From Candidatus Oxydemutatoraceae bacterium (GTDB lineage Bacteria > Pseudomonadota > Gammaproteobacteria > Poriferisulfidales > Oxydemutatoraceae), in contig OZ244779.1 of NCBI GenBank assembly GCA_965219575.1, forward strand, positions 364,769 to 428,768: 64,000 nucleotides of DNA, read 5' to 3'. The notes beneath the pieces are model-generated. The model was not told the origin of the DNA. It ran no database searches and saw only the letters and a list, made by a program, of their open reading frames with translations. Positions 9,248-60,448 of this stretch are shown here, piece by piece (position 1 is the stretch's first letter; each line of letters opens with the position of its first letter). Made by a program: the position numbers and the translations under genes.

Positions 9248-9364
9248 ACCGCTTGTAGCCCGACATTCCAATGTCACCCGGCGCAATGCAAGGCGGGAAA
9301 TAATACTTATGGGAATATAATAGATGTTTTACATCCCCCCGCATTTATTTAACACAAGCCACAG

Positions 9365-33514: not shown

Positions 33515-34324
33515 TTATGCAGTAATTACAGGCCATTGTGATTCGTATATTTTTTTTCTCGAATCTATCGCTTTGGCAAATAATACATCATCGTTTTCGG
33601 TGGCTAGATAAGAGAAATCAAAGCTGGGATTCTCGCTGAAAGATATATCACCTTCAATTGCAAACACGACTTCGTCGAGGCGATTTTTAATCTCCACGCT
33701 TTCAATATAGTGCGGAGGAATAAAAAGCAGTGTTTGCTGGTCTTTTTGCAGACCCGAATAATTAGGATGGGTGATGACAAGATGAAGGTTGCGCATTTTT
33801 GGATTGTCGGGCGCATCGTCTTGTATCAGTTGCATTTTGCCCATAGTCAGTTTAGACATAGGGTCAATTTCCATCGGCGGTGCGGAACACCCGCCGGAGG
33901 CTTTGACAAAAGTCCTAGTCATATAGAGTTTACCGTCGTTGGTTTCCGAGACTACACGAACATTACTATAAGCATTGACACGGATACGAGTTGATACGGT
34001 TGCCGTACCGTTTTTCGGTGATAAAGAAAACTTGGCTGCGACCGGAGACGGGTTCTCATCGACTATCAGGTGGTGAGTTTTAATAAACTGGTCTGTTTGT
34101 TGCGGAAAGCGCGAGGCAATAGTTATCGGCACATCGCCGCCGTTAGGAGGACGCTCGGGTGCTATAACCGACACCCATTGACTTCCGTCATCCACAGGAC
34201 GGTCCTGAAACAGAAAATTGCGAATATCCGTCCATGCTTGTTCTTGTTCTGCCCAGACATCTCCGAACTTGACGGCTATGCCCGTTGCAGCACTACACAT
34301 TAAAAATTTACGTCTGCTGATCAT
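33515..34324 (-). CDS. Quinoprotein dehydrogenase-associated SoxYZ-like carrier (Tat-exported)
   Basis: SRRKFL Tat motif, VDENPSP, VKASGGCSAP, HPNYSGLQ. Confidence 0.85.
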   Translation of the reverse strand: MISRRKFLMCSAATGIAVKFGDVWAEQEQAWTDIRNFLFQDRPVDDGSQWVSVIAPERPPNGGDVPITIASRFPQQTDQFIKTHHLIVDENPSPVAAKFSLSPKNGTATVSTRIRVNAYSNVRVVSETNDGKLYMTRTFVKASGGCSAPPMEIDPMSKLTMGKMQLIQDDAPDNPKMRNLHLVITHPNYSGLQKDQQTLLFIPPHYIESVEIKNRLDEVVFAIEGDISFSENPSFDFSYLATENDDVLFAKAIDSRKKIYESQWPVITA

Positions 34325-39523: not shown

Positions 39524-39784
39524 GGGGCTGTTGAAAAAGTGCGGACATTGCTCAAACCCAATCGCTGTGCGCCATGAACATTTGTAAACCGCCGTAGGGG
39601 CGGACTTGCATGTCCGCCCGTAACGCGTTATGCATGGACGATTTATACATTCATTCATCTGATTTATGGAAACCAAAACCAAATGGCGCAAGCGGTTGGC
39701 ATCGTGCAGAACGGTACTTAAGGGCAGACATCAGAGTTGCCGATTGACCTACCGGCTCAATCGGCGGCTTTATACCGCCCCTAC
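39524..39784. mobile_element. Family-1 element overlapping the 3' end of dsrK
   Basis: Left terminus at 39524, REP, core and palindrome, ending in CCGCCCCTAC within the last dsrK codons. Confidence 0.85.
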
Positions 39785-41317
39785 GACTTGGCGGCTGTCT
39801 GATGTCTCTTCCGCTTCCTCGACGGCATCGGGTTCCAGGACGATGGCGTTGCTCACCAGTTGGTGGATACACACGACTTGATCCAGTGTCAGTCCGTAGT
39901 ATGGGAAGATTTTGGTAAATTGGCTCTTGCAGATTGCACAGATTGCTGCCATATGTGTGACACCGCAGTGATCAACGACTTCTTGCAGTGCTTCCATGCG
40001 AGGCAGTGCGCCTTTCACTCTTAGTTCTATCAGGTCGTCGGTTAGCAAGCCACCGCCGCCGCCGCAGCAATAGGTGCCTTCTTTGATTGTTTCCGGCGAC
40101 ATGTCGTAGAAATGGTTGCAACAGGCTTTGATAATCTCGCGGGGTATGGTGAATTGTCCGCCCGGCATATCTCCCATCCGTGAGGCGCGGGCGATATTGC
40201 ACGAATCGTGAAAGGTCAGCACCATATCGTCGTTTTGCGAGGGGTCTAGGGTGAGTTTGTTTTTCTGGATGAGGTCGTGAGTAACCTCGCAGATATGTTG
40301 CGGCACCGGATAATCGGGGTCTAGGAAGTCGAAGGGGCCTGCCAGTGTATTGAGGAAACTGTAGGCGACGCGCCAAGCGTGTCCACATTCGCCGAATATG
40401 ATGCGCCGCACGCCGAGTTTTTGTGCCGCTTCGCGTATTCTCAGTGCGAGTTTTTGCATATTCTCATAGTTGCCGATGAACATACCGAAGTTGGCTGCCT
40501 CGCTGGCATGGGAGCTCAGAGTCCATGATATGCCTGCTTGATGAAATACTTTTGCATAACCGATTAAGCCGTCGACATGGGGTTCGGCAAAAAAATCCGC
40601 CGAAGGGGTCACCAGCAATACTTCGGCACCTGCTTCGTCAAGCGGGAAGCGCACTTTTGCGCCGGTGTCCTCGAAGACTTCCTCTTCCAAGCCTTCGAGT
40701 GTGTCCGCCAATGCCGGTTCGGGCAAGCCTAAGTTGTTGCCGATAACATGGACTTTGCCGATGATTTCGTTGCAGTATTTCTGCCCCTTGCCGATGTGAT
40801 CCATAATCTCTCGGGCTGCCATAGAAATCTCTGCGGTATCTATGCCGTAAGGGCAATATACCGAACAGCGTCGGCATTGCGAGCATTGGTGGAAGTAGCT
40901 ATACCAATCATCGAGCATTTCCTTGTTCATGTCTTCGGCACCGACCAGCCACGGGAAATACTTGCCCGAGAAAGTGTAATAGCGGCGATAGACTTTGCGG
41001 AATAAATCCTGCCGTGCGACCGGCATATTTTTGGGGTCGGTCGTGCCCAGATAGTAATGGCACTTATCGGTACAGGCACCGCACTTGACGCATGAGTCTA
41101 AGAAGACTTGTAGCGAGCGGTATTTGCCGACCAACTCACCCATTTTATCGACCGCAACCTGCTCCCAGTTATCAACCAGTTCGCCCGGAAAGCCTAACGA
41201 TTTCTGAAACTCGGCTTTCGCGGTAAAGGGCTGGCTGTGCTTCATCACATCCTCTTGCAATTTAGGGATCGCTCGGTCTTCTCTATATTTGGGGGTTTTG
41301 AATTCTGTTGTTGCCAT
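39770..41317 (-). CDS. dsrK: DsrK, Fe-S subunit of DsrMK(JOP)
   Basis: CVKCGACTDKC, CSQCRRC..CP, GECGH, HDSC, CCGGGGG; start ATG 41317. Confidence 0.95.
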   Translation of the reverse strand: MATTEFKTPKYREDRAIPKLQEDVMKHSQPFTAKAEFQKSLGFPGELVDNWEQVAVDKMGELVGKYRSLQVFLDSCVKCGACTDKCHYYLGTTDPKNMPVARQDLFRKVYRRYYTFSGKYFPWLVGAEDMNKEMLDDWYSYFHQCSQCRRCSVYCPYGIDTAEISMAAREIMDHIGKGQKYCNEIIGKVHVIGNNLGLPEPALADTLEGLEEEVFEDTGAKVRFPLDEAGAEVLLVTPSADFFAEPHVDGLIGYAKVFHQAGISWTLSSHASEAANFGMFIGNYENMQKLALRIREAAQKLGVRRIIFGECGHAWRVAYSFLNTLAGPFDFLDPDYPVPQHICEVTHDLIQKNKLTLDPSQNDDMVLTFHDSCNIARASRMGDMPGGQFTIPREIIKACCNHFYDMSPETIKEGTYCCGGGGGLLTDDLIELRVKGALPRMEALQEVVDHCGVTHMAAICAICKSQFTKIFPYYGLTLDQVVCIHQLVSNAIVLEPDAVEEAEETSDSRQVVGAV

Positions 41318-41330
41318 AATGTCCTCAGTT

Positions 41331-41536
41331 GGGGCTGTTGAAAAAGTACTGGTGTCGCACAAATCTAACCGCTTGCACTATTTGATTTTGGTTTCCATAA
41401 ATTGTATGGATAAATGTATAAATCATGCGGGCGCAACGCGCTACGGGCGGACATATAAGTCCGCCCCTACGGTAAGTAAACATAAATTGGGTGGGTAAAC
41501 ACATTGTTCTTGCAAAACGGTATTTTTTCAATAGAT
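41331..41536. mobile_element. Family-1 element inserted between dsrM and dsrK
   Basis: GGGGCTGTTGAAAAAGTA, core, REP and a degenerate right terminus. Confidence 0.82.
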
Positions 41537-42280
41537 CTAGTGCTTTTGTTGTTCCAGTTTTAATGCCCACGCCGCGATATGCCGTTGTTCTCTCGGGTTA
41601 TCCACTTGGTTGCGTGTCGGGCTGAAGAACAAACCCGGTGCATGCAGTAGTTTGCTAAACGGGAATATAATCATCAGCAGGGCGACGAGTGCGAGATGCA
41701 CGACCATCAGTAAGTCCGACGGCAACGGTTGCGGGTCAAGGCGCATCAGCCCTAAAAAGAATATCTTCATTGTCACGATATCCACCGGGTAAAAGAATGT
41801 CATCAAAACGCCGGTTGCACCGATTGCCAATAACAAGATTAGCATCAGGTGGTCGGACGGAGATGAAATATAGCGTACGCGGTCAACGACGATACGCCGC
41901 AACAATAATCCCATCAATCCTATAATCATCATCCAGGACGCATACTTGCCGAAAGGTTGCAACCAATTAACCCAAAACCAAACGGGTTCGGTGAAATAGC
42001 GCAGATGGCGCAGTAAAACCAAGAACAAACCGAAGTGGAATAACCAGCCGAATAACCAAGTCCATTTATTGGACTTGAACAGACTTTCAAAGAAAACGGT
42101 TTCTTTGAACAGACGATAAACGACCCCGCTTTGGGTGGTCGGTGCCGGTGTCGTCGGTATCTTTAGCGGTGCCGGAACTTTCCAATAAAGCCAGATTTTA
42201 TAAGCCAGTCCGCCTATCAATACCGCGGTTGCAATATAAAAGAGCGCGGCATAAGCGATGCTGAGTGCATTCATCTGCAC
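41537..42280 (-). CDS. dsrM: DsrM (NarI-like cytochrome b)
   Basis: PLKIPTTPAP, FH...RHLRYF, H..FPFSKLLHAPG, PTRNQ. Confidence 0.95.
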   Translation of the reverse strand: MQMNALSIAYAALFYIATAVLIGGLAYKIWLYWKVPAPLKIPTTPAPTTQSGVVYRLFKETVFFESLFKSNKWTWLFGWLFHFGLFLVLLRHLRYFTEPVWFWVNWLQPFGKYASWMMIIGLMGLLLRRIVVDRVRYISSPSDHLMLILLLAIGATGVLMTFFYPVDIVTMKIFFLGLMRLDPQPLPSDLLMVVHLALVALLMIIFPFSKLLHAPGLFFSPTRNQVDNPREQRHIAAWALKLEQQKH

Positions 42281-42328
42281 GGTCGCTCAAACTTGGGTTG
42301 CCTCAATTCGGCTTAACTCAATCTGTCG

Positions 42329-42661
42329 TCAGACGCAACCTGTGGGCTTAGGCAAGCCGGCGTATTTACACGCTTGTTTGGCGGGACCGTAAGGGAACAG
42401 CTCGTACAAATACTTGCTATTACCTTTTTCCTTGCCCAATCTCTTCCCGATTGCTTTAGTCAAGACTCGAACCGCCGGGGCAATCTGATATTCTTCGTAG
42501 TACTCGCGAAGAAAATTGATGACCTCCCAGTGATTATCCGACAACTCGGCACCGTCGGCCTGTGCCATTGCTTCGGCAAGTTCGGGCTTCCAGTCGTTCA
42601 AGTTGGCAAGATAACCTTCTTCGTCGGTCTCGTATGTTTTACCATCAATATCTAAAGGCAT
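42329..42661 (-). CDS. dsrC: DsrC sulfur carrier
   Basis: DEEGYL, LFPYGPAKQACKYAGLPKPTGCV with both C-terminal Cys. Confidence 0.97.
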   Translation of the reverse strand: MPLDIDGKTYETDEEGYLANLNDWKPELAEAMAQADGAELSDNHWEVINFLREYYEEYQIAPAVRVLTKAIGKRLGKEKGNSKYLYELFPYGPAKQACKYAGLPKPTGCV

Positions 42662-42685
42662 GTTTCTATCTCCTGTTGAATATAT

Positions 42686-42991
42686 CTATAACCATGATTG
42701 TACATTATCGTGATCTGCAACCAGATCGACAAAATCTTCATAGCCGATTAATTTTACACCTTCCAGCACCTGTTTGTCGGAAAAACCGCGTGCTTTAAGG
42801 TCGGGGTTCAGCGCATAAACCGCTAGGTTTCGTTGCATCGCTTGTGTGATCGTATCGGCAAAACGACCACCGGCGGTTGCGCAAACCACGCCGTCTTCTA
42901 TCAGCAACACCGAACCGTCGTCTTGTGCGGTATCTAAACACGACGACAGGGCGTTGCGCTCAAAGGGTGATTTGTTGACGATATGGAGCAT
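42686..42991 (-). CDS. dsrH: DsrH (TusB-like)
   Basis: MLHIVNKSPF, LLIEDGV, DLKARG, QSWL. Confidence 0.94.
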   Translation of the reverse strand: MLHIVNKSPFERNALSSCLDTAQDDGSVLLIEDGVVCATAGGRFADTITQAMQRNLAVYALNPDLKARGFSDKQVLEGVKLIGYEDFVDLVADHDNVQSWL

Positions 42992-43008
42992 AGACACGAC
43001 GGCATCCC

Positions 43009-43431
43009 TCAAAAACTTAAGATGACATCTTGCTCGGCCATGATCTCGGCTAACTTTTTGCGGTCCACAAAGTGCATCGCACTTTTCTCTTCCCAGTCGT
43101 CGTCTTCGTCCTCGTAGACCAAAGCCTGCAAGTCGTCGGCGGATAGTCCGCGCTCGCTTAACGATTCGGTATCCACATAAATAGTTTTGATATCGTAGTC
43201 GCCCAAAGCACTATAGGTGGGTGAGAAGTTTTTCATTTCTATATCGTCGGTGTCTTGAGATTTCATCAGCTGGTAGACGCCGTCGTCCATAAACACCAAA
43301 CTGACTTGCTGGTCGAAGGCTGCGGCAATCAAGACAACCTCCAGAGATTCCAAAGCATAAATCGTGCCGTAGGGTGCTTTGCGGTTGACATACATAAACT
43401 TCTTAACGGTACCTTCGGGGGCATCACTCAT
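43009..43431 (-). CDS. dsrF: DsrF (TusC-like)
   Basis: APYGTIYALESLE, FMDDGVYQL. Confidence 0.95.
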   Translation of the reverse strand: MSDAPEGTVKKFMYVNRKAPYGTIYALESLEVVLIAAAFDQQVSLVFMDDGVYQLMKSQDTDDIEMKNFSPTYSALGDYDIKTIYVDTESLSERGLSADDLQALVYEDEDDDWEEKSAMHFVDRKKLAEIMAEQDVILSF

Positions 43432-43441
43432 GGTTTGTTCC

Positions 43442-43834
43442 TCAATCTCCGAAAGTAATCAGGCGATCCGACTGTATGCCCGCCTCTATCAACTGACCCA
43501 AGCCCGAGATGCGAAAGCCCGGGGCGATATTATCGGTATCCTTGCCACCACGCTTTGCCTCGCCCTCGTCCAGCACACCACGCCGTTGCGCTGCTGCCAC
43601 GCAGACCACTAAATCGAGCTGGTATTTGTCGGCTAACTCCGACCATCGTTGCGATATGTTGCGGTCGTCCTGCGGCGGCACCGATAGGCGGGTGCCGTTA
43701 TAAACCCCGTCGTGATAAAAGAACACTCGGTAAATCTCGTGTCCCTTATCCAGCGCGGCTCTAGTGAACTGGTATGCGGTATCCGACGCTTGGTGCGTAT
43801 AGGGACCTTCGTTTATTAGTACGGAAAACTTCAT
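43442..43834 (-). CDS. dsrE: DsrE (TusD-like)
   Basis: FFYHDGV, CVAAAQRRG, SGLGQL. Confidence 0.96.
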   Translation of the reverse strand: MKFSVLINEGPYTHQASDTAYQFTRAALDKGHEIYRVFFYHDGVYNGTRLSVPPQDDRNISQRWSELADKYQLDLVVCVAAAQRRGVLDEGEAKRGGKDTDNIAPGFRISGLGQLIEAGIQSDRLITFGD

Positions 43835-43855
43835 GCCAGTGCCTCAACATTGCGA

Positions 43856-44123
43856 GGGAATGTTGAAAAAGTACTGTTTTCGCTCAACTGCAACCGCTTG
43901 CGCCATGAATATTTACAAACCACCCGTAGGGGTGGGCGGACATGTTAGTCCGCCCCTACTATGTCTGCCCGTACCGTTCGGAATAACCGAAACCGCTTGC
44001 GCCATTTGGTTTTGGTTTCCATAAACTGGATGAATAAATGTGTAAATCGTGCAGGCGCAACGCGTTACGGGCGGACATGCAAGTCCGCCCCTACGGTGCA
44101 TCAAATACTTTTTCAACGGCACT
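43856..44123. mobile_element. Family-1 element between dsrB and dsrE
   Basis: Degenerate termini, two REPs, GGTTTTGGTTTCCATAAA core. Confidence 0.82.
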
Positions 44124-44129
44124 GCGAGA

Positions 44130-45203
44130 CTAAAAGCGGATATGCGTTGAAGCATTGAGACTCCGGCGGGCACCTAACCAGTTGTCGATATGAAACTTCG
44201 TGAACGGCAGTTCGGTCAGCTCAAAGAAGCGCGGCCAACCGATGCGCTCCACCCAGTCGCTAATTCTTTCCCAGTCCTTGGCATCTTCTTTGTAGGTTTT
44301 CAAAATCTTTTTCACCACCGCAGTCGCCTCGGGCCAGCGCGGCGGGTTGTTCGGTATTCCTGCTGCAACCAATTTTTGGAAAGACGGCTTGCCGCGGGCG
44401 TTGGAATGATTGCCGCCGACCCATATCGCAAGTTTGGTATGCTCGGGGTCGTTGATCTGCATCGGCGGGCAAGGCGGATAACAAGCACCGCAACAGATAC
44501 ACTTCTTCTCGTCGACTTCGAGCGAAGGTTTGCCGTTGACCATCGCCGGGCGTATTGCAGCAACTGGACAACGTGCCACCACCGAAGGTCGTTCGCAGAC
44601 ATTGGAAACCAAGTCGTGGTTGATTTTAGGGGGTTTGGTGTGCTGGACATTGATTGCGATGTCGCCTTGTCCTCCGCAATTAATTTGGCAACACGAAGTG
44701 GTGATGTGTACGCGGTTCGGCATGTTCCAATTCTTAAACTCTTCTATCAGTTCGTCCATCATCGCCTTGACCACACCGGAGGCATCGGTGCCGGGAATGT
44801 CGCAGTGCAACCAGCCTTGGGTATGCGAAATCATTGCCACCGAGTTCTTGGTTCCGCCGACGACAAAGCCGGCATTTTCAAGGGCATCGATGAGCGGCAC
44901 GACTCGCTTCTCGTCGTCGAGCATATACTCTATGTTGCTACGGATCGTAAAACGGACATAGCCGTCGGCATATTTGTCGCCGATATCGCATAGCTTGCGT
45001 AGCGTGAACACATCCAAAATGCGCTGGGTGCCGGCGCGCACCGTCCAGATCGCTTCGCCTTCGTGCGATACATGTTTTAGCACACCGGGACGCGGGTCGT
45101 CGTGGTATGCCCAGTTGCCGTAATTCTTGCGCATCACCGGATGCATATATTGAAACCCGTCGGGACAACCCGACTCAATCGGAGAACGATGCTGTTGTGC
45201 CAT
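44130..45203 (-). CDS. dsrB: Dissimilatory sulfite reductase beta subunit (oxidative type)
   Basis: HTQGWLHC, SCCQINCG, CICCGAC, NNPPRWPE. Confidence 0.98.
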   Translation of the reverse strand: MAQQHRSPIESGCPDGFQYMHPVMRKNYGNWAYHDDPRPGVLKHVSHEGEAIWTVRAGTQRILDVFTLRKLCDIGDKYADGYVRFTIRSNIEYMLDDEKRVVPLIDALENAGFVVGGTKNSVAMISHTQGWLHCDIPGTDASGVVKAMMDELIEEFKNWNMPNRVHITTSCCQINCGGQGDIAINVQHTKPPKINHDLVSNVCERPSVVARCPVAAIRPAMVNGKPSLEVDEKKCICCGACYPPCPPMQINDPEHTKLAIWVGGNHSNARGKPSFQKLVAAGIPNNPPRWPEATAVVKKILKTYKEDAKDWERISDWVERIGWPRFFELTELPFTKFHIDNWLGARRSLNASTHIRF

Positions 45204-45231
45204 TCTTATTCCTCTATGTTGTGTGTTGATC

Positions 45232-46512
45232 TTAGGCAGTTTCTGCCTGCTTTTCTTCGGACTTTTTCTCGGCTCTGTTCTCGAACCACTTCTTGGCTTC
45301 CTGCTCCCATTCGTCCATGCGAATGTAGGAACTCGTGCGGGGGTCGCTCACCATGTTGGGGTCAACCTCCACGCCGATGCCGTCCAAGAAATTGATCAAG
45401 CCGATACGCTCTATCATCTCGCCGCAGCGCTCGTGTTCGAGACCGTTCTCGGCCCAGAAGTCTATCGTTTCCTCGGCAATCTCAACCAAGCGTTCGTAAT
45501 CCTCTTCGCTTTCCAGCTTCATAAAAGGCACGATGACGGTGCCCATCAAGTCGCCGATTTTCAGCGTGCGCTTGCCGCCGATTAAAATGGAGATGCCGGT
45601 GTCGTCGCCCGGAGATAGAGCTTTGGGCATCACATTCAAGCAATGCATACAGCGGACGCAGTTGCGGTTGTCCACATCCAGCGTGTCGTCGTCTTTCAGC
45701 GACAGTGCTTGGGTCGGACAGCGTGAAATCACATTGTCAACGATATATTGGCGCCCTTTCTTGGCGACATATTCCTTGACTTCGTTTTGATCTACTTTCA
45801 TGTCGTCGCGCCAGGTGCCTATGATGGCAAAATCGGCACGCTCTATGGAATTCATGCAGTCGTTCGGACAACCCGAAACCTTAAACTTGAACTTGTAAGG
45901 TAGCGACGGACGATGCACATCGTCGGTGAAGTTGTTGAGCAAGGTGCGGTGTATACGCATCTCGTCTATGTTGGATTGCTCGCAACGGGCAGCACCTACG
46001 CATGATTGTCCGGTGCGCACGCAGGGACCGGCACCGCCTAGGTCCCAACCGTATTCGTTGATATCGTCAAAAAAGTGTTGTGTGTTTTCGGTGCTGGCAC
46101 CTATAAACATAATGTTGCCGGTCTGACCGTGAAAAGTGACCAAGCCGGAACCCCACTTCTCCCAGCTATCTGCGAGCTTGCGAAGCATGTCGGTCGTATA
46201 GTAATTACCCGACGGCGGCTGCACTCTTAAGGTATGAAATTCTTTGGAAGCAGGGAACGCTGCACCGACTTCCGAAAAGCGCGGGATAATACCGCTACCA
46301 TAACCGAAGACACTCACCGTGCCGCCTTTCCAATAACCCTTGCGGGTCTCGTACGAATGTTCCAGCTGACCCAGTAAGTCGTTTGCTACACCGCTTACGC
46401 GGTCATCTTCGTGTTGATCTCTAAGCCGTTTGATGCCGGAAACAAAACTAGGCCAAGGCCCTTTTTCCAGTTCGTCCAACATCGGTGTGTCATGTGGTTG
46501 TTTTGTTGACAT
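45232..46512 (-). CDS. dsrA: Dissimilatory sulfite reductase alpha subunit (oxidative type)
   Basis: TPMLDELEKGPWPSFV, WKGG, CVGAARCE, KFKFKVSGCPNDC, CVRCMHC. Confidence 0.98.
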   Translation of the reverse strand: MSTKQPHDTPMLDELEKGPWPSFVSGIKRLRDQHEDDRVSGVANDLLGQLEHSYETRKGYWKGGTVSVFGYGSGIIPRFSEVGAAFPASKEFHTLRVQPPSGNYYTTDMLRKLADSWEKWGSGLVTFHGQTGNIMFIGASTENTQHFFDDINEYGWDLGGAGPCVRTGQSCVGAARCEQSNIDEMRIHRTLLNNFTDDVHRPSLPYKFKFKVSGCPNDCMNSIERADFAIIGTWRDDMKVDQNEVKEYVAKKGRQYIVDNVISRCPTQALSLKDDDTLDVDNRNCVRCMHCLNVMPKALSPGDDTGISILIGGKRTLKIGDLMGTVIVPFMKLESEEDYERLVEIAEETIDFWAENGLEHERCGEMIERIGLINFLDGIGVEVDPNMVSDPRTSSYIRMDEWEQEAKKWFENRAEKKSEEKQAETA

Positions 46513-52208: not shown

Positions 52209-53195
52209 CTATTCCACCGGCCACAGCGGTTCATTTTCAATATACCACTGTGCCATCTTTTGGATGCCCGTTTTCAAATTGGTTTTAGGCTCATAGCCCA
52301 ACGCTTGTATGCGTGCAATATCCGGACAGCGGCGGTCGGTTTCCCCGGAGGGTGAATCGGACGGTATTATGTTGCCCTCCCTACCGAATACTTCCAGCAC
52401 GATAGAGACTACCTCTTTGATTTGCACTTCATCCATCGTGCCGATATGAAAAAAGGAACATTTTTCGGCTTGGGTAAAAGCCGCATAGCATCCTTCGGTG
52501 AAATCATCTACATATACAAAAGCTCGGGTTTGTGCGCCCGATCCACGAATCGGGAAATCGATGGTTTGCCCTTTAGGGGTCTCTCTATCCAACCGAGCGG
52601 CACGCATAATCATCTGCGGTAGAACATGCTCAAAACCCATGTCGGCTCCGTAGACATTGTGGGGGCGTACAATCGCTAATTGCCGGAACGCCTTGCGTCC
52701 ATAATTCACCGCCAGCAATTCGGTTGCGATTTTACCGCCACCGTAGCTATAGCGAGGGTTCAGAACATCGGGGATAATCAGTGCTGCCGTCTCGTCGGTG
52801 GGCACTTTCTTGGCTCGCTGATAAACTTCGGATGAACTCAAAATCCAATAGCGATCTATTTTATGTGCAATACAAGCCTCTATGGTGTTCAAAGCACCTT
52901 TGATGCCGACCTCTAAAATCTGTTCCGGCATGCTATAAAAAAACTCGGTACCGTTGATATAAGCCAAGTGCGCAACTACATCCATCCCTCTGCATGCTTT
53001 TTCAACAACGGCATAATCGCGCACATCGCCGACGATAAAATCAATATCGTCGATCACATCGGCAAGACGCCTCGCATGTCCTCTGGAATTATTATCTAAA
53101 ACGCTTACTTGCCAGCCTTCTCGCAACAGTTTTTTAACCAAAGCACTGCCTAAAAAGCCGCTGCCGCCGGTTACTAAAATTCGCTCGCTCGTCAT
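52209..53195 (-). CDS. NAD-dependent nucleotide-sugar epimerase/dehydratase
   Basis: TGGSGFLG, SSSEVY, YGGGK, R.HNVYG; start ATG 53195. Confidence 0.92.
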   Translation of the reverse strand: MTSERILVTGGSGFLGSALVKKLLREGWQVSVLDNNSRGHARRLADVIDDIDFIVGDVRDYAVVEKACRGMDVVAHLAYINGTEFFYSMPEQILEVGIKGALNTIEACIAHKIDRYWILSSSEVYQRAKKVPTDETAALIIPDVLNPRYSYGGGKIATELLAVNYGRKAFRQLAIVRPHNVYGADMGFEHVLPQMIMRAARLDRETPKGQTIDFPIRGSGAQTRAFVYVDDFTEGCYAAFTQAEKCSFFHIGTMDEVQIKEVVSIVLEVFGREGNIIPSDSPSGETDRRCPDIARIQALGYEPKTNLKTGIQKMAQWYIENEPLWPVE

Positions 53196-53253
53196 TAATT
53201 CAACTCTATGGATTTTGTACCAACTAATGCAATAAGTGTATAAAACTTTAATA

Positions 53254-54600
53254 TCAACTCGGGTTTGAACCGGAACCGTTGCCCAAGTGCATAAACTTGA
53301 GTTTGTCTTCGGAGTGTAGACCTCTGTAAGCAGGCAACACAGACCATATATCATAAATAGCGGCAGGGGTTGCCATAGACATCGTCAAAGCATCCAGATC
53401 TATCCACTCATATTTTTTATTGTTGTTTGCTACTATTACAACCGATGCACGGTCAAACGCCTGCTTCAGATCCACCGGGGTTATCCCTAGATTGGAAATC
53501 GCCCGACTACCGACGGCAAAATCGTGTCCACAAATCGTCGCTTCGGGATATCGCTGCCTCAAACATGCAACAATATCCAAACTCGACGAGGCACGAGTAT
53601 CATCGGTTTCGGGTCGTCCTTTGAATGCCATACCCAAAATACTTATTTTAGTGTCTTTACCTTTATGCGGAATAATTCCGGTGTGGTCAAGACGATCACA
53701 TACATAGCCGGGAAGAGATTCGTTCAGGGCTCTGCCCTGTTTAATCAACTGTGGCACATAATCATAAGCCTTCAGAGAGGCTTGCAGAATATGTGGGTCT
53801 TTATAGAGACAAGGCCCGCCTACAAAACCGGGATCCGAAATCTGTGTCCTCGCATAACCTATGTTTGCAGCCTTAATAATTTCCCTACTGTCTAACCCCG
53901 CTGCCTCACATAATAATGCAACTTCATTCCCTATCGCAAAATTTAAATCTCTATAACTGTTATCCAACAATTTAATAATCTCGGCACTCTCAAGAGAGGA
54001 AACCATAATAACCGTCGGCGTTATTCTTCTAAAGACCGCCTCTGCTTGCAATGCCGACGCTTCCGTCAAGCCACCGATAATTTGCGGTAAAACAGCTAGT
54101 TCGGCCATTGCATTGCCCTCGATGGTACGCTCGGGGCAATAGGCGAGGCCGAATTGTTTACCACTTTGCTCCAGAGTCTTTTTAACGATTTTACGGGTGG
54201 TGCCTAGTTGCACGGTCGAGCGCAATATGACCAGTGCATCGTCGCTCATATGATTTGCAATCTCTTTTGATACCGACTCTATCATATCCATACGAGGATA
54301 ACCTTCATCGCTAAGCGGCGTACCCACCGTGATGATATAAACCAAAGGTTTTTGTCTATCGTTATCGAGTTCGGATACTTTGGATAAAAAATGCAGTCTG
54401 CCTGCATTCAAGCCACCTTTGATGCGAGGTTCAAAACCTTTTTCTAAAAAGTGTGGTTTGCCTTGCATAAGCATTTTTAATATATCCGAATTTTTCTCTA
54501 CCCCCCAAACATCAAAGCCCCGATCGGACATAATCGCAGCTAAGGTTAGACCGACATAGCCCATACCCACAATACATATTTTTCTATGTTCTATTACCAT
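53254..54600 (-). CDS. UDP-glucose/GDP-mannose dehydrogenase-family protein
   Basis: GMGYVG, VGTP, RSTV, CPER, GGPCL.KD, AFKG..DD.R. Confidence 0.93.
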   Translation of the reverse strand: MVIEHRKICIVGMGYVGLTLAAIMSDRGFDVWGVEKNSDILKMLMQGKPHFLEKGFEPRIKGGLNAGRLHFLSKVSELDNDRQKPLVYIITVGTPLSDEGYPRMDMIESVSKEIANHMSDDALVILRSTVQLGTTRKIVKKTLEQSGKQFGLAYCPERTIEGNAMAELAVLPQIIGGLTEASALQAEAVFRRITPTVIMVSSLESAEIIKLLDNSYRDLNFAIGNEVALLCEAAGLDSREIIKAANIGYARTQISDPGFVGGPCLYKDPHILQASLKAYDYVPQLIKQGRALNESLPGYVCDRLDHTGIIPHKGKDTKISILGMAFKGRPETDDTRASSSLDIVACLRQRYPEATICGHDFAVGSRAISNLGITPVDLKQAFDRASVVIVANNNKKYEWIDLDALTMSMATPAAIYDIWSVLPAYRGLHSEDKLKFMHLGNGSGSNPS

Positions 54601-54865
54601 AGTTTTATCCTTAAAGTATCAATAAAAAATTTCGGCTTTTCAGGAAAATCAATCGCATATATTGTATAGATAATTTCGATTTTCCGGCATCATCATACTA
54701 ATAGATATAGAACACGGAACTCTCTCCTGTTCATAATAGGGAGCATTATATGCTTTCTGCCTGTCTACTTCAATTTATAGTGTCATTTGTTCGTACAATG
54801 TCGCTAGAAATATGGTAAACTATGAGTTTCGTAACCCCCTCATAAATTTACAAGGAGATGTAATT

Positions 54866-55417
54866 ATGAACCAAAACTTCAAACTCAAAAAGTCCATCAG
54901 ATTGATAACCGCTATTTTAGCAGGAAGCATGATGATGGCGGGAGCCGTATCTGCTGACGACTGCAAAATGCGCTCGGCACAGAAAATGTCCGGCGACTAT
55001 ATAATGGCAGCTGGCCACATGAAAGGTGAAGATCATCATCACGGTGATGGCATGATGAAAGATGCCGATCATGGCGATGGCATGATGAAAGATGCCGATC
55101 ATGGCGATGGCATGATGAAAGATGCCGATCATGGCGATGGCATGATGAAAGATGCCGGACACGGCGATGGCATGATGAAAGATGCCGGACACGGCGATGG
55201 CATGATGAAAGATGCCGGACACGGCGATGGCATGATGAAAGATGCCGGACACGGCGATGGCATGATGAAAGATGCCGGACACGGTGACGGCATGATGAAA
55301 GATGCCGGACACGGTGACGGCATGATGAAAGATGCCGGACACGGTGACGGCATGATGAAAGATGCCGGACACGGTGACGGCATGATGAAAGATGCCGGAA
55401 GCATGAAAAAGTATTAA
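54866..55417 (+). CDS. Secreted His/Met-rich repeat protein, paralog of the adjacent HvfA-like peptide
   Basis: AAGGAG RBS and ATG 54866; signal peptide; 12 x HGDGMMKDA(D/G). Confidence 0.85.
   Translation: MNQNFKLKKSIRLITAILAGSMMMAGAVSADDCKMRSAQKMSGDYIMAAGHMKGEDHHHGDGMMKDADHGDGMMKDADHGDGMMKDADHGDGMMKDAGHGDGMMKDAGHGDGMMKDAGHGDGMMKDAGHGDGMMKDAGHGDGMMKDAGHGDGMMKDAGHGDGMMKDAGHGDGMMKDAGSMKKY
55040..55399 (+). repeat. 12 x 30-bp coding tandem repeat
   Basis: CATGATGAAAGATGCCG every 30 bp from 55051 to 55381, in three variant blocks (3+4+4) plus a terminal partial unit. Confidence 0.97.
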
Positions 55418-55440
55418 AAACCTTTAATCTGCTAACAGGT

Positions 55441-55470
55441 ATAGGGGTGGGTCACATACCCACCCCCTAT
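55441..55470 (+). terminator. Hairpin terminator after the His/Met gene
   Basis: ATAGGGGTGGGT-CACAT-ACCCACCCCCTAT. Confidence 0.65.
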
Positions 55471-55569
55471 ATCATGCGCCTGTTGAATGATTGCCACAAT
55501 CAAAACATTTCGACTTAATTGCGATACCCACCCGCAGGGTCGGCCCCTCTACTATTAAGCAAGGGGATA

Positions 55570-55614
55570 CTAGCTCTCCCCTACAACACATATTTCTCTA
55601 GGCTCTGTTGCCAT
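55570..55614 (-). pseudogene. Remnant of the duplicated 5' end of the NDP-sugar dehydrogenase gene
   Basis: MATEPREICVVG..* versus MVIEHRKICIVG at 54600; the upstream ~85 bp is also homologous. Confidence 0.7.
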
Positions 55615-55770
55615 AGTTTTATCTTTCAAATATCAATAGAAAAATTTCGGTTGTTATCAAGAAAATCAACTGATATATTTTATAAATAATTGCGATTTTC
55701 AAATGTCGCTAGAGATATGATAGACTAGGGTTCTAAAAAACCCCTATAATCATATTAAGGAGACGTAATC

Positions 55771-56271
55771 ATGAACAAAAACTTCAAACTCAAAAAATCC
55801 ATCAGATTGGTAACCGCTACTTTGGCGGGAAGTATGACGATGGCGGGAGCTGTGTCTGCCGAAAGCAACATTTTCTCGGTGCAAGAACTACCCGGCGGCT
55901 ACATGCTGGCAGGTTCTCACATGGAGGGTAAATGTGGTGAAGGGCACTGCGGTGAAGGCATGAAAGGTGCCGAAGGGCAATGTGGTGAAGGCAGTTGCGG
56001 TGAAGGCATGAAAGGTGCCGAAGGGCAATGTGGTGAAGGCACTTGCGGTGAAGGCATGAAAGGTGCCGAAGGGCAATGTGGTGAAGGCACTTGCGGTGAA
56101 GGTATGAAAGATGCCGAAGGGCAATGTGGTGAAGGTCAGTGTGGTGGATCCATGAAAGATGCCGAAGGGCAATGTGGTGAAGGTCAGTGTGGTGGATCCA
56201 TGAAAGATGCCGAAGGGCAATGTGGTGAAGGTCAGTGTGGCGGATCTATGAAAAATGCCGAAAGGCGGTAA
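55771..56271 (+). CDS. HvfA-like EGxCG-repeat (oxazolone/thioamide RiPP-type) precursor
   Basis: Signal peptide, F..QEL.GGYMLA linker, 7 x EGxCGEGxCG units (14 Cys). Confidence 0.85.
   Translation: MNKNFKLKKSIRLVTATLAGSMTMAGAVSAESNIFSVQELPGGYMLAGSHMEGKCGEGHCGEGMKGAEGQCGEGSCGEGMKGAEGQCGEGTCGEGMKGAEGQCGEGTCGEGMKDAEGQCGEGQCGGSMKDAEGQCGEGQCGGSMKDAEGQCGEGQCGGSMKNAERR
55924..56250 (+). repeat. ~7 x 48-bp coding tandem repeat
   Basis: ATGAAAG(G/A)TGCCGAAGGGCAATGTGGTGAAGG at a 48-bp period. Confidence 0.92.
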
Positions 56272-56305
56272 ATAGAGACTTTTAGCATACTTGCTTAGTC
56301 CGCAT

Positions 56306-56338
56306 AGGGGTGGATATTCGGTCCACCCCTGATTTTTT
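56306..56338 (+). terminator. Rho-independent terminator
   Basis: AGGGGTGGA-loop-TCCACCCCT followed by a T-run; resembles the 55441 hairpin. Confidence 0.75.
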
Positions 56339-56366
56339 GCGAAACACTCTATAAGAAATAGGCTGA

Positions 56367-57023
56367 TTATTGGTAGCGTAGTTCTACCCGCCTGTTCATG
56401 GCATTCGCATAGGCACTATCTCCCTCTACAGCCAGTTCGCTTTTACCACGACTCTCTGTGCTGATACTGGAAGGAGAGACTCCCATTTGAACCAATATCT
56501 CGGCGACGGCTTGTGCTCTTCTTAAGGCAAGTTCCTGGTTATAACGACTGGACGCTATCGCATCGGAATGTCCCACTAAAATAACGGAAGCACCACTGTT
56601 GATTAGATATTGAGAATGTAACTGCAACAAATTAAGGCTCGTTGCCGGAACGATAATACTTTTATAATCAAAATAGACAATAGCGCGTGGTAGAGCAGAC
56701 CCGGGCGAAGGTCTTCTGACCGGCTCATCCCCATATTCCTCACCGAACTCATCTTCAAATTCCTCTGCGAACTCCTCGTCGAACTCGTCTTCAAATTCCT
56801 CTGCGAACTCTTCATCGAATTCGTCGGCGAATTCTTCGTCAAATGCTTCGTCAAACTCTTCATCGAATTCGTCGGCGAATTCTTCATCCATTTCCTCTTC
56901 CATGGAAATTTCAACGACTTCCTCGTCGTCTTCAAAAAACCAATCCCATGTATTAGACATGGTAGAACAGCCGGACAAAGCGAATACTGCCGATAGACCG
57001 ATTAAAAATAGCTTCAATTTCAT
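56367..57023 (-). CDS. OmpA/Pal-like peptidoglycan-binding lipoprotein with a long acidic (D/E)EEF linker
   Basis: Lipobox LSGC; VYFD, GHSD, YNQELALRRA, NRRVE; start ATG 57023. Confidence 0.88.
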   Translation of the reverse strand: MKLKLFLIGLSAVFALSGCSTMSNTWDWFFEDDEEVVEISMEEEMDEEFADEFDEEFDEAFDEEFADEFDEEFAEEFEDEFDEEFAEEFEDEFGEEYGDEPVRRPSPGSALPRAIVYFDYKSIIVPATSLNLLQLHSQYLINSGASVILVGHSDAIASSRYNQELALRRAQAVAEILVQMGVSPSSISTESRGKSELAVEGDSAYANAMNRRVELRYQ

Positions 57024-57127
57024 TTTATTTCCTTCCCGATAAGTCTGTTTCCCTGCTGGATCGGTCAACCGACCGATTCAAATTATAGGCGATAGTATAA
57101 CATCTATTTTTGTATTCTATAAAAGGC

Positions 57128-58784: not shown

Positions 58785-59402
58785 CTAGGCAAACACGATC
58801 CAAGTCGTAGCAATGTATTTTACACCCTTCTGCAAAATCACACCTCTATGTTCGTGGGTCCAAAAAGGAGGAAATAAAAGTAATTTGCCTTGCTCGGGTT
58901 TGATGCGAACTTGTTGAATCAGAAACTCGGTCTCGCCGCCGGGTCCCGGCACATCGTTCAAGTACCAAATAGCAACCAGTTGACGATTGCTGAAATCATG
59001 GCTGCCGCCGTCTATATGCCAATGGTAGTATTCGTCGTTGCGGGTGCGCTGCATACCGTAACCCATATCCTTGAAGCGACCGGAAAAATAAGGGAATGTA
59101 GCCCTAAATTCTCTCATTGCGCAAGCCAAGGATTGAAACAATGCTCGATCTATATCTTTCCATTGTTGTTTGCCGCTAATCAACAAGTCGGTTGACCGTT
59201 TGACGGCTGAATTTTGCACCGCAACTTGACCGACGCATCCGACGAATTGCTCGTCGGTGCTTTCTTCAAAACGATGAATCATCTGCTCGCATAACGATCC
59301 CGAAAGCGCGTTATGCTTCTCAAAAATAAAGGAATTGGGTTTGACCTCGGATAGGGTTTTGAGCGGTATTATAGTTTTTTGACTACACATCGTATGAGGC
59401 AC
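58785..59402 (-). CDS. 2OG-Fe(II) oxygenase
   Basis: YHWHID, WYLNDV..GGETEF, FPP.WTH.HRG, KYI.T.W. Confidence 0.88.
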   Translation of the reverse strand: MPHTMCSQKTIIPLKTLSEVKPNSFIFEKHNALSGSLCEQMIHRFEESTDEQFVGCVGQVAVQNSAVKRSTDLLISGKQQWKDIDRALFQSLACAMREFRATFPYFSGRFKDMGYGMQRTRNDEYYHWHIDGGSHDFSNRQLVAIWYLNDVPGPGGETEFLIQQVRIKPEQGKLLLFPPFWTHEHRGVILQKGVKYIATTWIVFA

Positions 59403-60448
59403 TAGAAAGCGTATCGGGTTATTAAATCTTCGGTGTTTTGCTTGTTTCTATTATTTCCCTCTGCGGATAATTCTAATAGATCGCACACTTTCTCCTGCCA
59501 ATGCTTCTTCGCCGGTAACAATGATGACTCTAATAATGAAAAGTCATTGCTTTGTGTCCAGTTTCGATAGGCATCTATCAACACCGGGCATAACGCTTTG
59601 CGCATAACACTCATGTTCGCTATATAAAAATGTATAGAGGCCGACTTTTGTTGCGAGACTAATGCGGGTAACAGCGCAATGCTGTCGGCTAAATTGTCCT
59701 TCATTGCGCGGATTAGCGGTTCCATTCTCGAGGCACTGCATCGGTGCAATATCCGATGCCAGCCGTCGGGAAGATAACGGTGTGCTTCTAGTTCCCCTAT
59801 CTCGTGCAAAAGAACCGTTTCTGTTTCAACCTCGGTCATCCGCTCGAGGGCATCTTCCAGATTATTGTCAAAATCGTAATACGAGAGTGCCGCCGCCATC
59901 GCATTTTGGGGACGATTCCAGTACCATTCGTTGAGCTTCTCCCAAATCATTCTTTTAAGTGACTCTTTTCTGATGAAAATTGTCTTTGCCAAAGACATGC
60001 CGGGTGGCGCAGTTAGATCCCGGGCGTATTCCTTCGAGGATATCAGCACTCGATAATCTTTATAAAAACTTTGAGATTCATACTCGGCAATAAAAAAGTG
60101 CGGTATTGATTTTGCCCCTATACCACCCGAATAGATATAGCCTTGAGAGAGTAAATGCTCGTTAATCGCCTCGGTATCGAAGGGGTTGAATGTTCGATCG
60201 TTGATACACAAAGGTTGAAAATCTTCATGTTTGATAGACTCCCATTCGGTCTCCCGGCTACATAGCCACGCACCTAACTCCGATTGATCCAGAGATGTAT
60301 CGAAACCGTAGCCTTTCTCCCAACGAAAGTACTCTCGCATTTTCAAAAGATAAACACACATCGTGTAAGTGCCGGCATAACACGCATCGGAGATGTCGCA
60401 GTTATGCTGCACGACATCGCGCAGATTTTTAATAGAGTGATCCATCAT
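59402..60448 (-). CDS. Conserved hypothetical protein (Sfum_1244-like)
   Basis: VQHNCDISDA, C.YLLKMREYFRWE, LHEIGE. Confidence 0.7.
   Translation of the reverse strand: MMDHSIKNLRDVVQHNCDISDACYAGTYTMCVYLLKMREYFRWEKGYGFDTSLDQSELGAWLCSRETEWESIKHEDFQPLCINDRTFNPFDTEAINEHLLSQGYIYSGGIGAKSIPHFFIAEYESQSFYKDYRVLISSKEYARDLTAPPGMSLAKTIFIRKESLKRMIWEKLNEWYWNRPQNAMAAALSYYDFDNNLEDALERMTEVETETVLLHEIGELEAHRYLPDGWHRILHRCSASRMEPLIRAMKDNLADSIALLPALVSQQKSASIHFYIANMSVMRKALCPVLIDAYRNWTQSNDFSLLESSLLPAKKHWQEKVCDLLELSAEGNNRNKQNTEDLITRYAF

Follow-up and report, generated by a model that had tools for sequence, protein, structure and literature searches.

The window, by which we mean the whole stretch of 64,000 nucleotides (nt) analysed here from a Candidatus Oxydemutatoraceae bacterium (contig OZ244779.1, positions 364,769 to 428,768), contains two neighbouring plus-strand open reading frames (ORFs) with 353 nt between them, called HM and CY. 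CY resembles the Cys-rich, copper-binding HvfA-like peptides; HM begins in the same way and carries a His/Met repeat without Cys. In a Candidatus Porisulfidus-like lineage, a stand-alone HvfA/EGKCG gene was very probably duplicated in tandem, one copy being rewritten as HM while CY kept its Cys pairs. The pair may show an enzyme-dependent metal binder becoming an enzyme-independent one. It had been singled out in an earlier note made from the letters of the sequence, and the claims of that note are taken up below where results bear on them.

Captophorin-type peptides such as HvfA and the bufferins have only recently been recognised as a response of bacteria to copper stress, and they are very widespread. 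To our knowledge, all described members depend on Cys and on an MNIO enzyme. MNIO enzymes turn Cys residues of EGKCG-type motifs into copper-binding heterocycles, as the earlier note had stated (PMC11252979, PMC13097082; all articles are cited here for part of their text). The HvfA modification was first given as oxazolone/thioamide (PMC11252979) and later revised to 5-thiooxazole (PMC13097082), a revision also found in two 2026 preprints. In the part of PMC13097082 drawn on, this chemistry is known for HvfA, FonA and NgoA only, and an intact N-region is called 'optimal' for modification (PMC11252979). Buf_EGKCG/oxazolin genes mostly sit with genes for MNIO, DUF2063 and DoxX, and stand-alone precursor genes exist (PMC12452194).

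Two genes with like signal peptides and unlike cores

The core of HM is an array of 12 exact matches to HGDGMMKDA[DG], as had been read from the sequence, with 24 Met, 12 His and 0 Cys; over its full length HM has 33 Met, 15 His and a single Cys, at mature position 3, outside the repeats. Tandem Repeats Finder reports period 30, 12.0 copies and 97% matches. The units vary at three synonymous sites (His, Gly and Asp codons) and at one D/G codon, and since they are near-identical and identical units stand in blocks, the array appears to be a recent local expansion. Its opposite strand is also open, as expected of a simple repeat. Mature HM consists of 24% Gly, 20% Asp, 19.0% Met, 11% Lys, 9.8% His and 10% Ala and has a net charge of -14; D/E/K/R account for 32.7% of residues, or 42.5% with His included. 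An alternative longer ORF begins at 54812; the start at 54866 is the one that the orthologues share and that has AAGGAG in front of it, and in both HM and CY this motif is found 8 nt ahead of the ATG.

CY has 14 Cys in seven CGEGxCG pairs. The earlier note had counted seven full MKxAEGQCGEGxCG units; the Cys pairs and their number stand, but an exact fit to MKxAEGQCGEGxCG(EG/GS) is seen in only six units, since in the first pair, EGKCGEGHCGEG, the MKxA prefix is absent (period 48, 6.4 copies and 94% matches by Tandem Repeats Finder). Where the family has K as the inner residue, CY has Q, S, T or H. With NF050137, CY scores 88.1 bits in six stretches (cutoff 19.5), and with the HvfA equivalog model NF050188 it scores 89.4, just below the cutoff of 95, the alignment running from profile position 8; TIGR02953, the pentapeptide MXKDX model, gives no match. 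These scores place CY in the HvfA/EGKCG family as an ordinary member, though a stand-alone one, as its description as HvfA-like had implied.

Over their N-terminal 65 residues HM and CY are identical at 38/65 positions (E 1e-22). DNA identity is 79/90 in the signal-peptide region, 84/104 in the distal and 47/69 in the proximal upstream region, and both repeat units contain ATGAAAGATGCCG, as reported earlier. This similarity is far beyond chance, and synteny, described below, independently explains the likeness; the two are paralogous neighbours with a common signal peptide and upstream region, as had been proposed. Both signal peptides read as a K/R-rich n-region, a hydrophobic core and an AxA-type end, VSA, after which HM, predicted to be exported by Sec, would be cleaved.

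The two copies have diverged very unevenly. The 30 codons of the signal peptide differ by 4 non-synonymous and 7 synonymous changes. The linker that follows, described before as near-identical, is not: at positions 31-56, 17 of the 25 aligned codons differ non-synonymously and 2 synonymously, against 2-4 non-synonymous and 5-7 synonymous differences between CY and three orthologues (loci L001-L003, below) over the same codons. The block NIFSVQELP, invariant in CY, in L001-L003 and in the protein relatives P0001-P0004, has CKMRSAQKMS in its place in HM, and G-x-Y-x-x-A-x-x-H-M-x-G is retained there. The invariant block may help recognition by an MNIO partner.

Outside the coding regions, the common terminator of the earlier note was found in part: related hairpins stand 3' of both genes, and hairpins homologous to that of HM stand 3' of the genes in L001 and L003, but a T-run follows the CY hairpin only and a terminator scan made no call on that of HM. 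About 112 nt that are present before HM and in all three orthologues are missing upstream of CY (window 54686-54797 versus 55690-55700), and because of this one-sided loss the paralogues probably differ in regulation. Promoter-like sites in the region number 3, not above shuffles (mean 4.8).

Origin of the pair

We scanned a genome collection with the leader patterns FKLKKSIRL and A[TI]LAGS[MI][TM]M. This gave 85 stretches, three of which were confirmed as related loci (L001-L003, on the chromosomes or contigs OZ241323.1, CBDAVG010000002.1 and OZ244052.1), all from metagenome-assembled genomes (MAGs) titled uncultured Candidatus Porisulfidus sp. In 3/3 of them a minus-strand UDP-glucose dehydrogenase gene is followed by a single HvfA-like gene, which is of the Cys type, has leader and linker as in CY and scores 64-88 bits per locus with NF050137. 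An OmpA-family lipoprotein with acidic repeats comes next in L002 and L003 and then guanylate kinase, with an insertion sequence (IS) element between in L003; in L001 a transposase is next to the HvfA-like gene.

HM stands where the ancestral gene stood, behind the ancestral upstream region, and is still an intact 183-codon ORF. Window 52217-55026, which takes in the dehydrogenase gene, the intergenic region and HM up to its nucleotide 160, forms one collinear block with L001/L002 (86%, BLASTN). The region upstream of HM is collinear with all three loci at 72-75% identity over ~260 nt, and the 3' end of HM with the 113 nt downstream matches L003 at 80%, the L003 protein ending in MKAY.

Upstream of CY the dehydrogenase start and the intergenic region are found again: window 55580-55702 matches L001 9707-9827 at 80% (BLASTN). 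Minus-strand translation from 55614 reads MATEPREICVVGES and then a stop, a dead dehydrogenase N-terminus of 14 codons; the intact start in the window reads MVIEHRKICIVGMGYVG and that of the relatives MATEHRKICIVGMGYVG. From the collinear flanks and this dead remnant upstream of CY we infer a tandem duplication of a segment that starts near codon 12 of the dehydrogenase and reaches past the hairpin. Since the remnant (55573-55614, minus strand) retains the ancestral start MATE, as do the three relatives, and the live gene (54541-54600, minus strand) starts MVIE, the live N-terminus changed after the duplication. Non-coding identity is 81-83% between the paralogues and 72-78% between orthologues, which places the duplication after the split of this lineage from the three MAG species, though not in recent time.

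Because the Cys type is found in 3/3 related loci and in the closest database relatives, it is taken as ancestral and the His/Met state as derived. HM derives from an HvfA-like gene, is intact, bears a Sec signal and has no Cys in its repeats. That the signal peptide was retained and the mature part rewritten fits neofunctionalisation, which the earlier note had put forward together with duplication. The evolutionary event behind the pair is thus well supported; what HM does is put forward below as a proposal.

The composition of HM was compared with that of CY relatives, of which 184 were found at E<=1e-3. Among the best 120 of these, no protein has fewer than 2 Cys (median 7), Met reaches 16.2% at most (median 3.25%) and His 8.9%; HM, which has a single Cys and is 19.0% Met and 9.8% His, falls outside all three ranges. 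The motif N.F...[EQ]L..GY is present in 48/120, and 10/120 have at least 12% Met with at least 4 Cys kept (examples are GMMKKGMEGQCGEMMKG tracts and KMMMMME tails). Two of the closest relatives have altered cores: P0005, whose leader is common with HM and CY, has four GESMKDAD units and 2 Cys, and no TIGR02953 match at E<=1, and the core of P0004 mixes HHD/HCGHH with MKDGEG, that is, His with Cys. With one mixed and one Cys-poor core so close, cores in the clade of CY seem to change ligands readily. In P0073, P0099, P0043 and P0090 the CGEGxCG pairs are followed by a common C-terminal tail of type KMHMRMRMMEQKIDKMMMMMEDMQKKMK, a Met module fused to a Cys module, which goes without comment in the main texts searched.

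Genes around the pair were identified by a Pfam scan (E<=1e-5) of 67 non-overlapping ORFs of at least 90 aa across the 64 kb of the window. In the +/-10 kb flanks of L001-L003, 25 of the 54 ORFs of at least 110 aa were scanned, the other 29 being HvfA-like genes or counterparts of window ORFs by synteny, size and order. None of the 67 window ORFs is of the MNIO (PF05114), DUF2063 (PF09836), DoxX or MsrP/MsrQ type (PF00174, PF01794), or a sigma factor, a member of an extracytoplasmic function (ECF) sigma/anti-sigma pair or a copper-resistance gene, and no MNIO, DUF2063, DoxX or MsrPQ family member is among the 25 flank ORFs. At locus level the HvfA-like gene of this clade is 'stand-alone', and the MNIO pair that the earlier note had credited to the genome was found neither in the window nor among these flank ORFs. 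Table 1 lists the features of the locus.

Table 1. Features of the HM/CY locus, in window coordinates
Feature	Coordinates	Strand	Remarks
HM upstream region	54601-54865	+	Ancestral intergenic region between dehydrogenase and HvfA-like gene; AAGGAG at 54852-54857
HM	54866-55417	+	183 aa
HM signal peptide, codons 1-30 (MNQNFKLKKSIRLITAILAGSMMMAGAVSA)	54866-54955	+	Predicted signal peptidase I cut after VSA
HM mature N-terminus, or 'linker' (DDCKMRSAQKMSGDYIMAAGHMKGEDHH)	54956-55039	+	Strongly diverged; Met, His and Lys gained; holds the sole Cys
HM core	55040-55399	+	12 tandem 30-nt units, HGDGMMKDA(D/G)
HM tail GSMKKY and stop codon	55400-55417	+	Sequence reading
GC-rich hairpin 3' of HM	55438-55473	+	-24.5 kcal/mol, z -4.15; no T-run
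Dead UDP-glucose dehydrogenase 5' remnant (MATEPREICVVGES, then stop)	55573-55614	-	Left edge of duplicated segment
CY upstream region	55615-55770	+	Duplicated copy minus ~112 nt; AAGGAGA at 55757-55763; promoter-like site at 55721-55750
CY	55771-56271	+	166 aa
CY signal peptide	55771-55860	+	Within CY; followed by conserved linker ESNIFSVQELPGGYMLAGSHMEG, then 7 CGEGxCG pairs
Intrinsic-terminator-like hairpin and T-run 3' of CY	56305-56341	+	11 pairs, then ATTTTTTGCG; -30.5 kcal/mol, z -5.46

Possible functions of HM

By the tests applied, HM belongs to no described family; it descends from one and resembles two others in composition. It has no match to NF050137 or NF050188 at E<=1. With TIGR02953 it scores 20.2 bits (cutoff 41, E 4.3e-4) over profile positions 7-77 of 78. 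Two further identities were considered and rejected: IcmE/DotG (NCBIfam 34 against a cutoff of 750; 99.6 bits in the PDB), which has only a K-D-A-G every ten residues in common with HM, and the Pfam family 'Decapeptide' (23.8 against 45). A PDB sequence search returned only the periodic IcmE/DotG matches and one match at E 0.035.

Homologues of the core were sought in two protein collections. A word-index search of 5.8 billion clusters with the whole of HM gave 35 candidates (100-321 aa), none at E<=1e-3, and with residues 1-58 at E<=10 it gave two candidates, none of them scored, a blank that reflects the index, since P0001-P0005 have the leader. That collection returned neither HM nor CY itself and so apparently does not hold the proteins of the source genome. 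A phmmer search against 1.84 billion representatives gave 457 matches at E<=1e-3. The best 150 of these all cover the repeat region of HM (query start at least 29), so placed that leader-only relatives could rank below them; the 11 inspected are unrelated decapeptide-repeat (period-10) proteins, MMKD, HGDG or GDGM occurs in 0/150, and three MKDA words occur in one (P0126, 3280 aa). In the ESM Atlas the best score was 0.83, with low recognition, and rank 3 was a 'Pentapeptide MXKDX repeat protein' (0.81); these are leads only. Among the literature matches listed, no Cys-free captophorin or bufferin paralogue is described. The words 'methionine' and 'His' occur 0 times in the main text of PMC12452194, as do 'methionine' and 'histidine' in that of PMC13097082, the supplementary precursor lists lying outside these counts.

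We propose that HM is exported by Sec, cut after VSA and active in the periplasm without modification by an MNIO enzyme. It would be a disordered protein with several sites that bind or buffer soft metals (Cu(I)/Ag(I), perhaps also Cu(II)), the ligands being Met thioethers and His imidazoles, assisted by Asp carboxylates. CY would be an MNIO substrate if such an enzyme is encoded elsewhere in the genome, and would otherwise bind metal through free thiols. Taken as one statement, the duplicated origin together with an unmodified periplasmic Met/His metal sponge of the SilE/PcoE kind has, in our judgement, an even chance of being right.

Several observations favour this proposal. Since its repeats lack Cys and its N-region has been rewritten, HM would no longer be a substrate for Cys-directed MNIO chemistry. 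Soft-metal binding is preferred because Cu(I) binding is known from the parent family (PMC11252979, PMC13097082), because Met tracts recur inside Cys-bearing relatives, because regularly spaced His are typical of metal sites, and because the disordered His/Met proteins SilE and PcoE work in this way (PMC5008109). AlphaFold2 models mature HM, as a single sequence, with no secondary structure (predicted local distance difference test 47.5, predicted template modelling score 0.13), which is weak evidence, compatible with a sponge.

The likeness to known systems is partial in each case. SilE and PcoE are His/Met-rich periplasmic proteins that are disordered when metal-free and bind several Ag(I)/Cu(I) ions through His and Met, folding as they do so (PMC5008109), and HM is predicted to be unstructured and has a suitable composition; unlike them it is a perfect decapeptide array with no HxxM/MxxH helical motifs, lies outside any sil/pco operon and has no sequence homology to them, its Pfam/NCBIfam matches at E<=1 being only repeat artefacts and its PDB matches artefacts. 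His/Met-rich tracts are also implicated in periplasmic copper capture in CopI and in the intrinsically disordered region of an outer-membrane channel (PMC13308877, PMC12509749), where they are appended to folded domains, whereas HM is a free-standing repeat protein. Among the captophorins (HvfA/Buf_EGKCG/oxazolin-fontiphorin; NF050137, NF050188), CY has the signal peptide, the conserved N-region and the repeated (E)G(K/Q)CGEGxCG pairs; HM shares the signal peptide, flanks and origin of CY but has neither the Cys motif nor a family match, and so is a descendant and not a member by the defining motif. Unlike typical captophorin genes, neither lies beside MNIO, DUF2063 or DoxX in the window, nor does the related gene in the flanks of the relatives.

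Other findings weigh against a metal sponge. No metal-homeostasis, MNIO or regulator gene was found near the pair in the window or in the relatives' flanks, and on the side of expression a simple sigma-70 consensus scan found no site upstream of HM. The protein searches gave no homologue of the HM core that would show conservation, and since near-identical units mean recent expansion, long-term constraint on the core is unproven. The spacing of the ligands is H-x3-M-M and not the HxxM/MxxH of SilE, and the abundant Asp and Gly could point to harder cations. Composition (19% Met, 33% D/E/K/R) and the M-x-K-D-x unit suit scavengers of the MrpX type equally well.

That last point leads to the most serious alternative, somewhat doubtful in our view, in which HM is a functional analogue of the MXKDX proteins MrpX and BcrX: a sacrificial Met sink in the periplasm, re-reduced by MsrPQ (YedYZ), with metal binding incidental. 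The Azospira scavenger MrpX is exported, oxidised by hypochlorite and recycled by YedY (PMC4436054). Like these proteins HM is small, predicted to be Sec-exported, ~20% Met and rich in charged residues, and it contains 12 M-x-K-D-x units where CY has 0; its 19% Met and 33% D/E/K/R (42.5% with His) compare with 20% Met and 44% charged residues in MrpX (PMC4436054). The TIGR02953 match, weak but global, and the rank-3 look-alike in the ESM Atlas are two weak, partly independent signals. MsrP and MsrQ presumably correspond to the domain types oxidored_molyb and ferric-reductase. Genes for these two are carried by a few Buf_EGKCG/oxazolin clusters (PMC12452194), and a Brucella MXKDX protein homologous to the Azospira scavenger adjoins msrQP (PMC8315932).

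Against this, the TIGR02953 score is half of the curated cutoff, and as HM descends from an HvfA-like gene the likeness would be convergent. The units of HM are non-contiguous, at a 10-residue period and interleaved with (G/D)HGDG, and its 15 regularly spaced His are unneeded for Met scavenging and typical of metal sites. No PF00174, PF01794 or ECF sigma/anti-sigma pair is among the 67 window ORFs, which show no msrPQ or sigF-nrsF neighbourhood, and no reactive-chlorine source is known for this organism. The earlier note had said that membership of HM in a described family unrelated to HvfA would tell against its reading; with a sub-threshold score and HvfA-like descent HM is not such a member. 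That note had, however, overlooked the MXKDX likeness, which comes close to the point (MMKDA fits the pentapeptide and the Met content matches that of MrpX) without reaching it. A metal sponge and an oxidant scavenger are not mutually exclusive, and HM hints at a link between copper-binding peptides and Met-rich oxidant scavengers.

A wider version of that link, which we regard as rather improbable, would place HvfA/EGKCG precursors and MXKDX/MrpX proteins at opposite ends of a single continuum of low-complexity 'sulfur-ligand' proteins exported by Sec. The pair would have been caught in mid-switch, trading Cys-derived thiooxazoles for Met/His, with P0004 and P0005 as intermediates and the two copies cooperating in a symbiont that oxidises sulfur. 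If so, the Cys copy would bind copper tightly, and the thiol-free copy would be an oxidant- or polysulfide-resistant buffer or a Met redox shield.

It is improbable that HM is a functionless or near-neutral duplicate with a drifted mature part and a slippage-expanded repeat, open only since its 30-nt unit is stop-free. Such a duplicate could be expected in one lineage only, as HM is, with no core homologue in any search made, a young array (97% matches), no promoter-like consensus called upstream and an open opposite strand; the 17 non-synonymous against 2 synonymous linker changes could likewise reflect relaxation and not positive selection. Yet ~17-19% non-coding divergence between the copies has left the signal peptide, the start codon and the Shine-Dalgarno sequence intact, and HM sits at the ancestral position with an upstream region conserved in three other species. 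Its changes are also directional (Met, His and Asp) in linker and core alike, not random, and variation among units is confined to three synonymous sites and the D/G codon.

Some MNIOs act on residues other than Cys, and HM might be the precursor for a new modification of His, Asp or Met by an MNIO or other enzyme encoded elsewhere, which we consider highly improbable. Its precursor ancestry and retained signal peptide, preliminary evidence that the bufferin signal peptide is part of the recognition sequence (PMC12452194) and a 2-oxoglutarate (2OG)-Fe(II) oxygenase gene 3.4 kb downstream speak for it, but no modifying enzyme is linked to the pair in the window or the relatives' flanks, the oxygenase gene with its DUF6866 partner is apparently present in L002 and L003 without HM (by ORF size and order), the family-conserved block after the signal peptide is destroyed in HM, and Met/His arrays bind metals unmodified.

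HM would be a clear example of the gene of a ribosomally synthesised and post-translationally modified peptide (RiPP) precursor leaving the RiPP world. Side by side, HM and CY could show what is gained by modification, compared with plain side chains as ligands: in affinity, in selectivity for metals, and in tolerance of oxidants and sulfide. If the genome has no MNIO, the role of unmodified EGKCG proteins becomes a question. The suggestion of the earlier note that a thiol-free ligand could suit a sulfide-rich periplasm is a conjecture whose sole support is the presence of dsr and sox genes in the host.

Neighbouring genes and host

The dsr and sox genes mark the host as a sulfur oxidiser. The dsr cluster (39770-46512, minus strand) encodes a dsrAB-like NIR_SIR pair, DsrE/F/H, DsrC, a nitrate-reductase-gamma-like protein and Fe-S proteins (dsrMK-like), and a fused SoxY-SoxZ ORF lies at 33515-34324 (minus strand).

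The downstream neighbour of CY is an OmpA-family lipoprotein gene (56367-57068, minus strand) with an LSGC lipobox-like signal and a long acidic tract, EEFDEEFDE..., which could itself bind cations. Its position is kept in two of the three relatives (L002 10832-11500 and L003 10751-11425, both minus strand). The 2OG-Fe(II) oxygenase (PF13640) and DUF6866 pair lies at 58785-60448 (minus strand), 2.5-4 kb downstream; ORFs of like size and order are present in L002 and L003, both without HM, and the pair is probably unrelated to HM and CY.

Transposase or IS genes lie by the HvfA-like locus in all three relatives (L001 11066-12364, minus strand; L003 11955-13030, plus strand; L002 1874-2803, minus strand), the types near these loci being DDE_Tnp_1_4, an IS3-type rve integrase and IS1595, and their presence marks the neighbourhood as prone to rearrangement. 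Farther off, window 6323-11668 (plus strand) encodes two large subtilase-family proteins in tandem, which have a P-domain and He_PIG Ig-like domains. Leucine-rich repeats, present in addition in the first, are unusual for a free-living bacterium and suggest host interaction.

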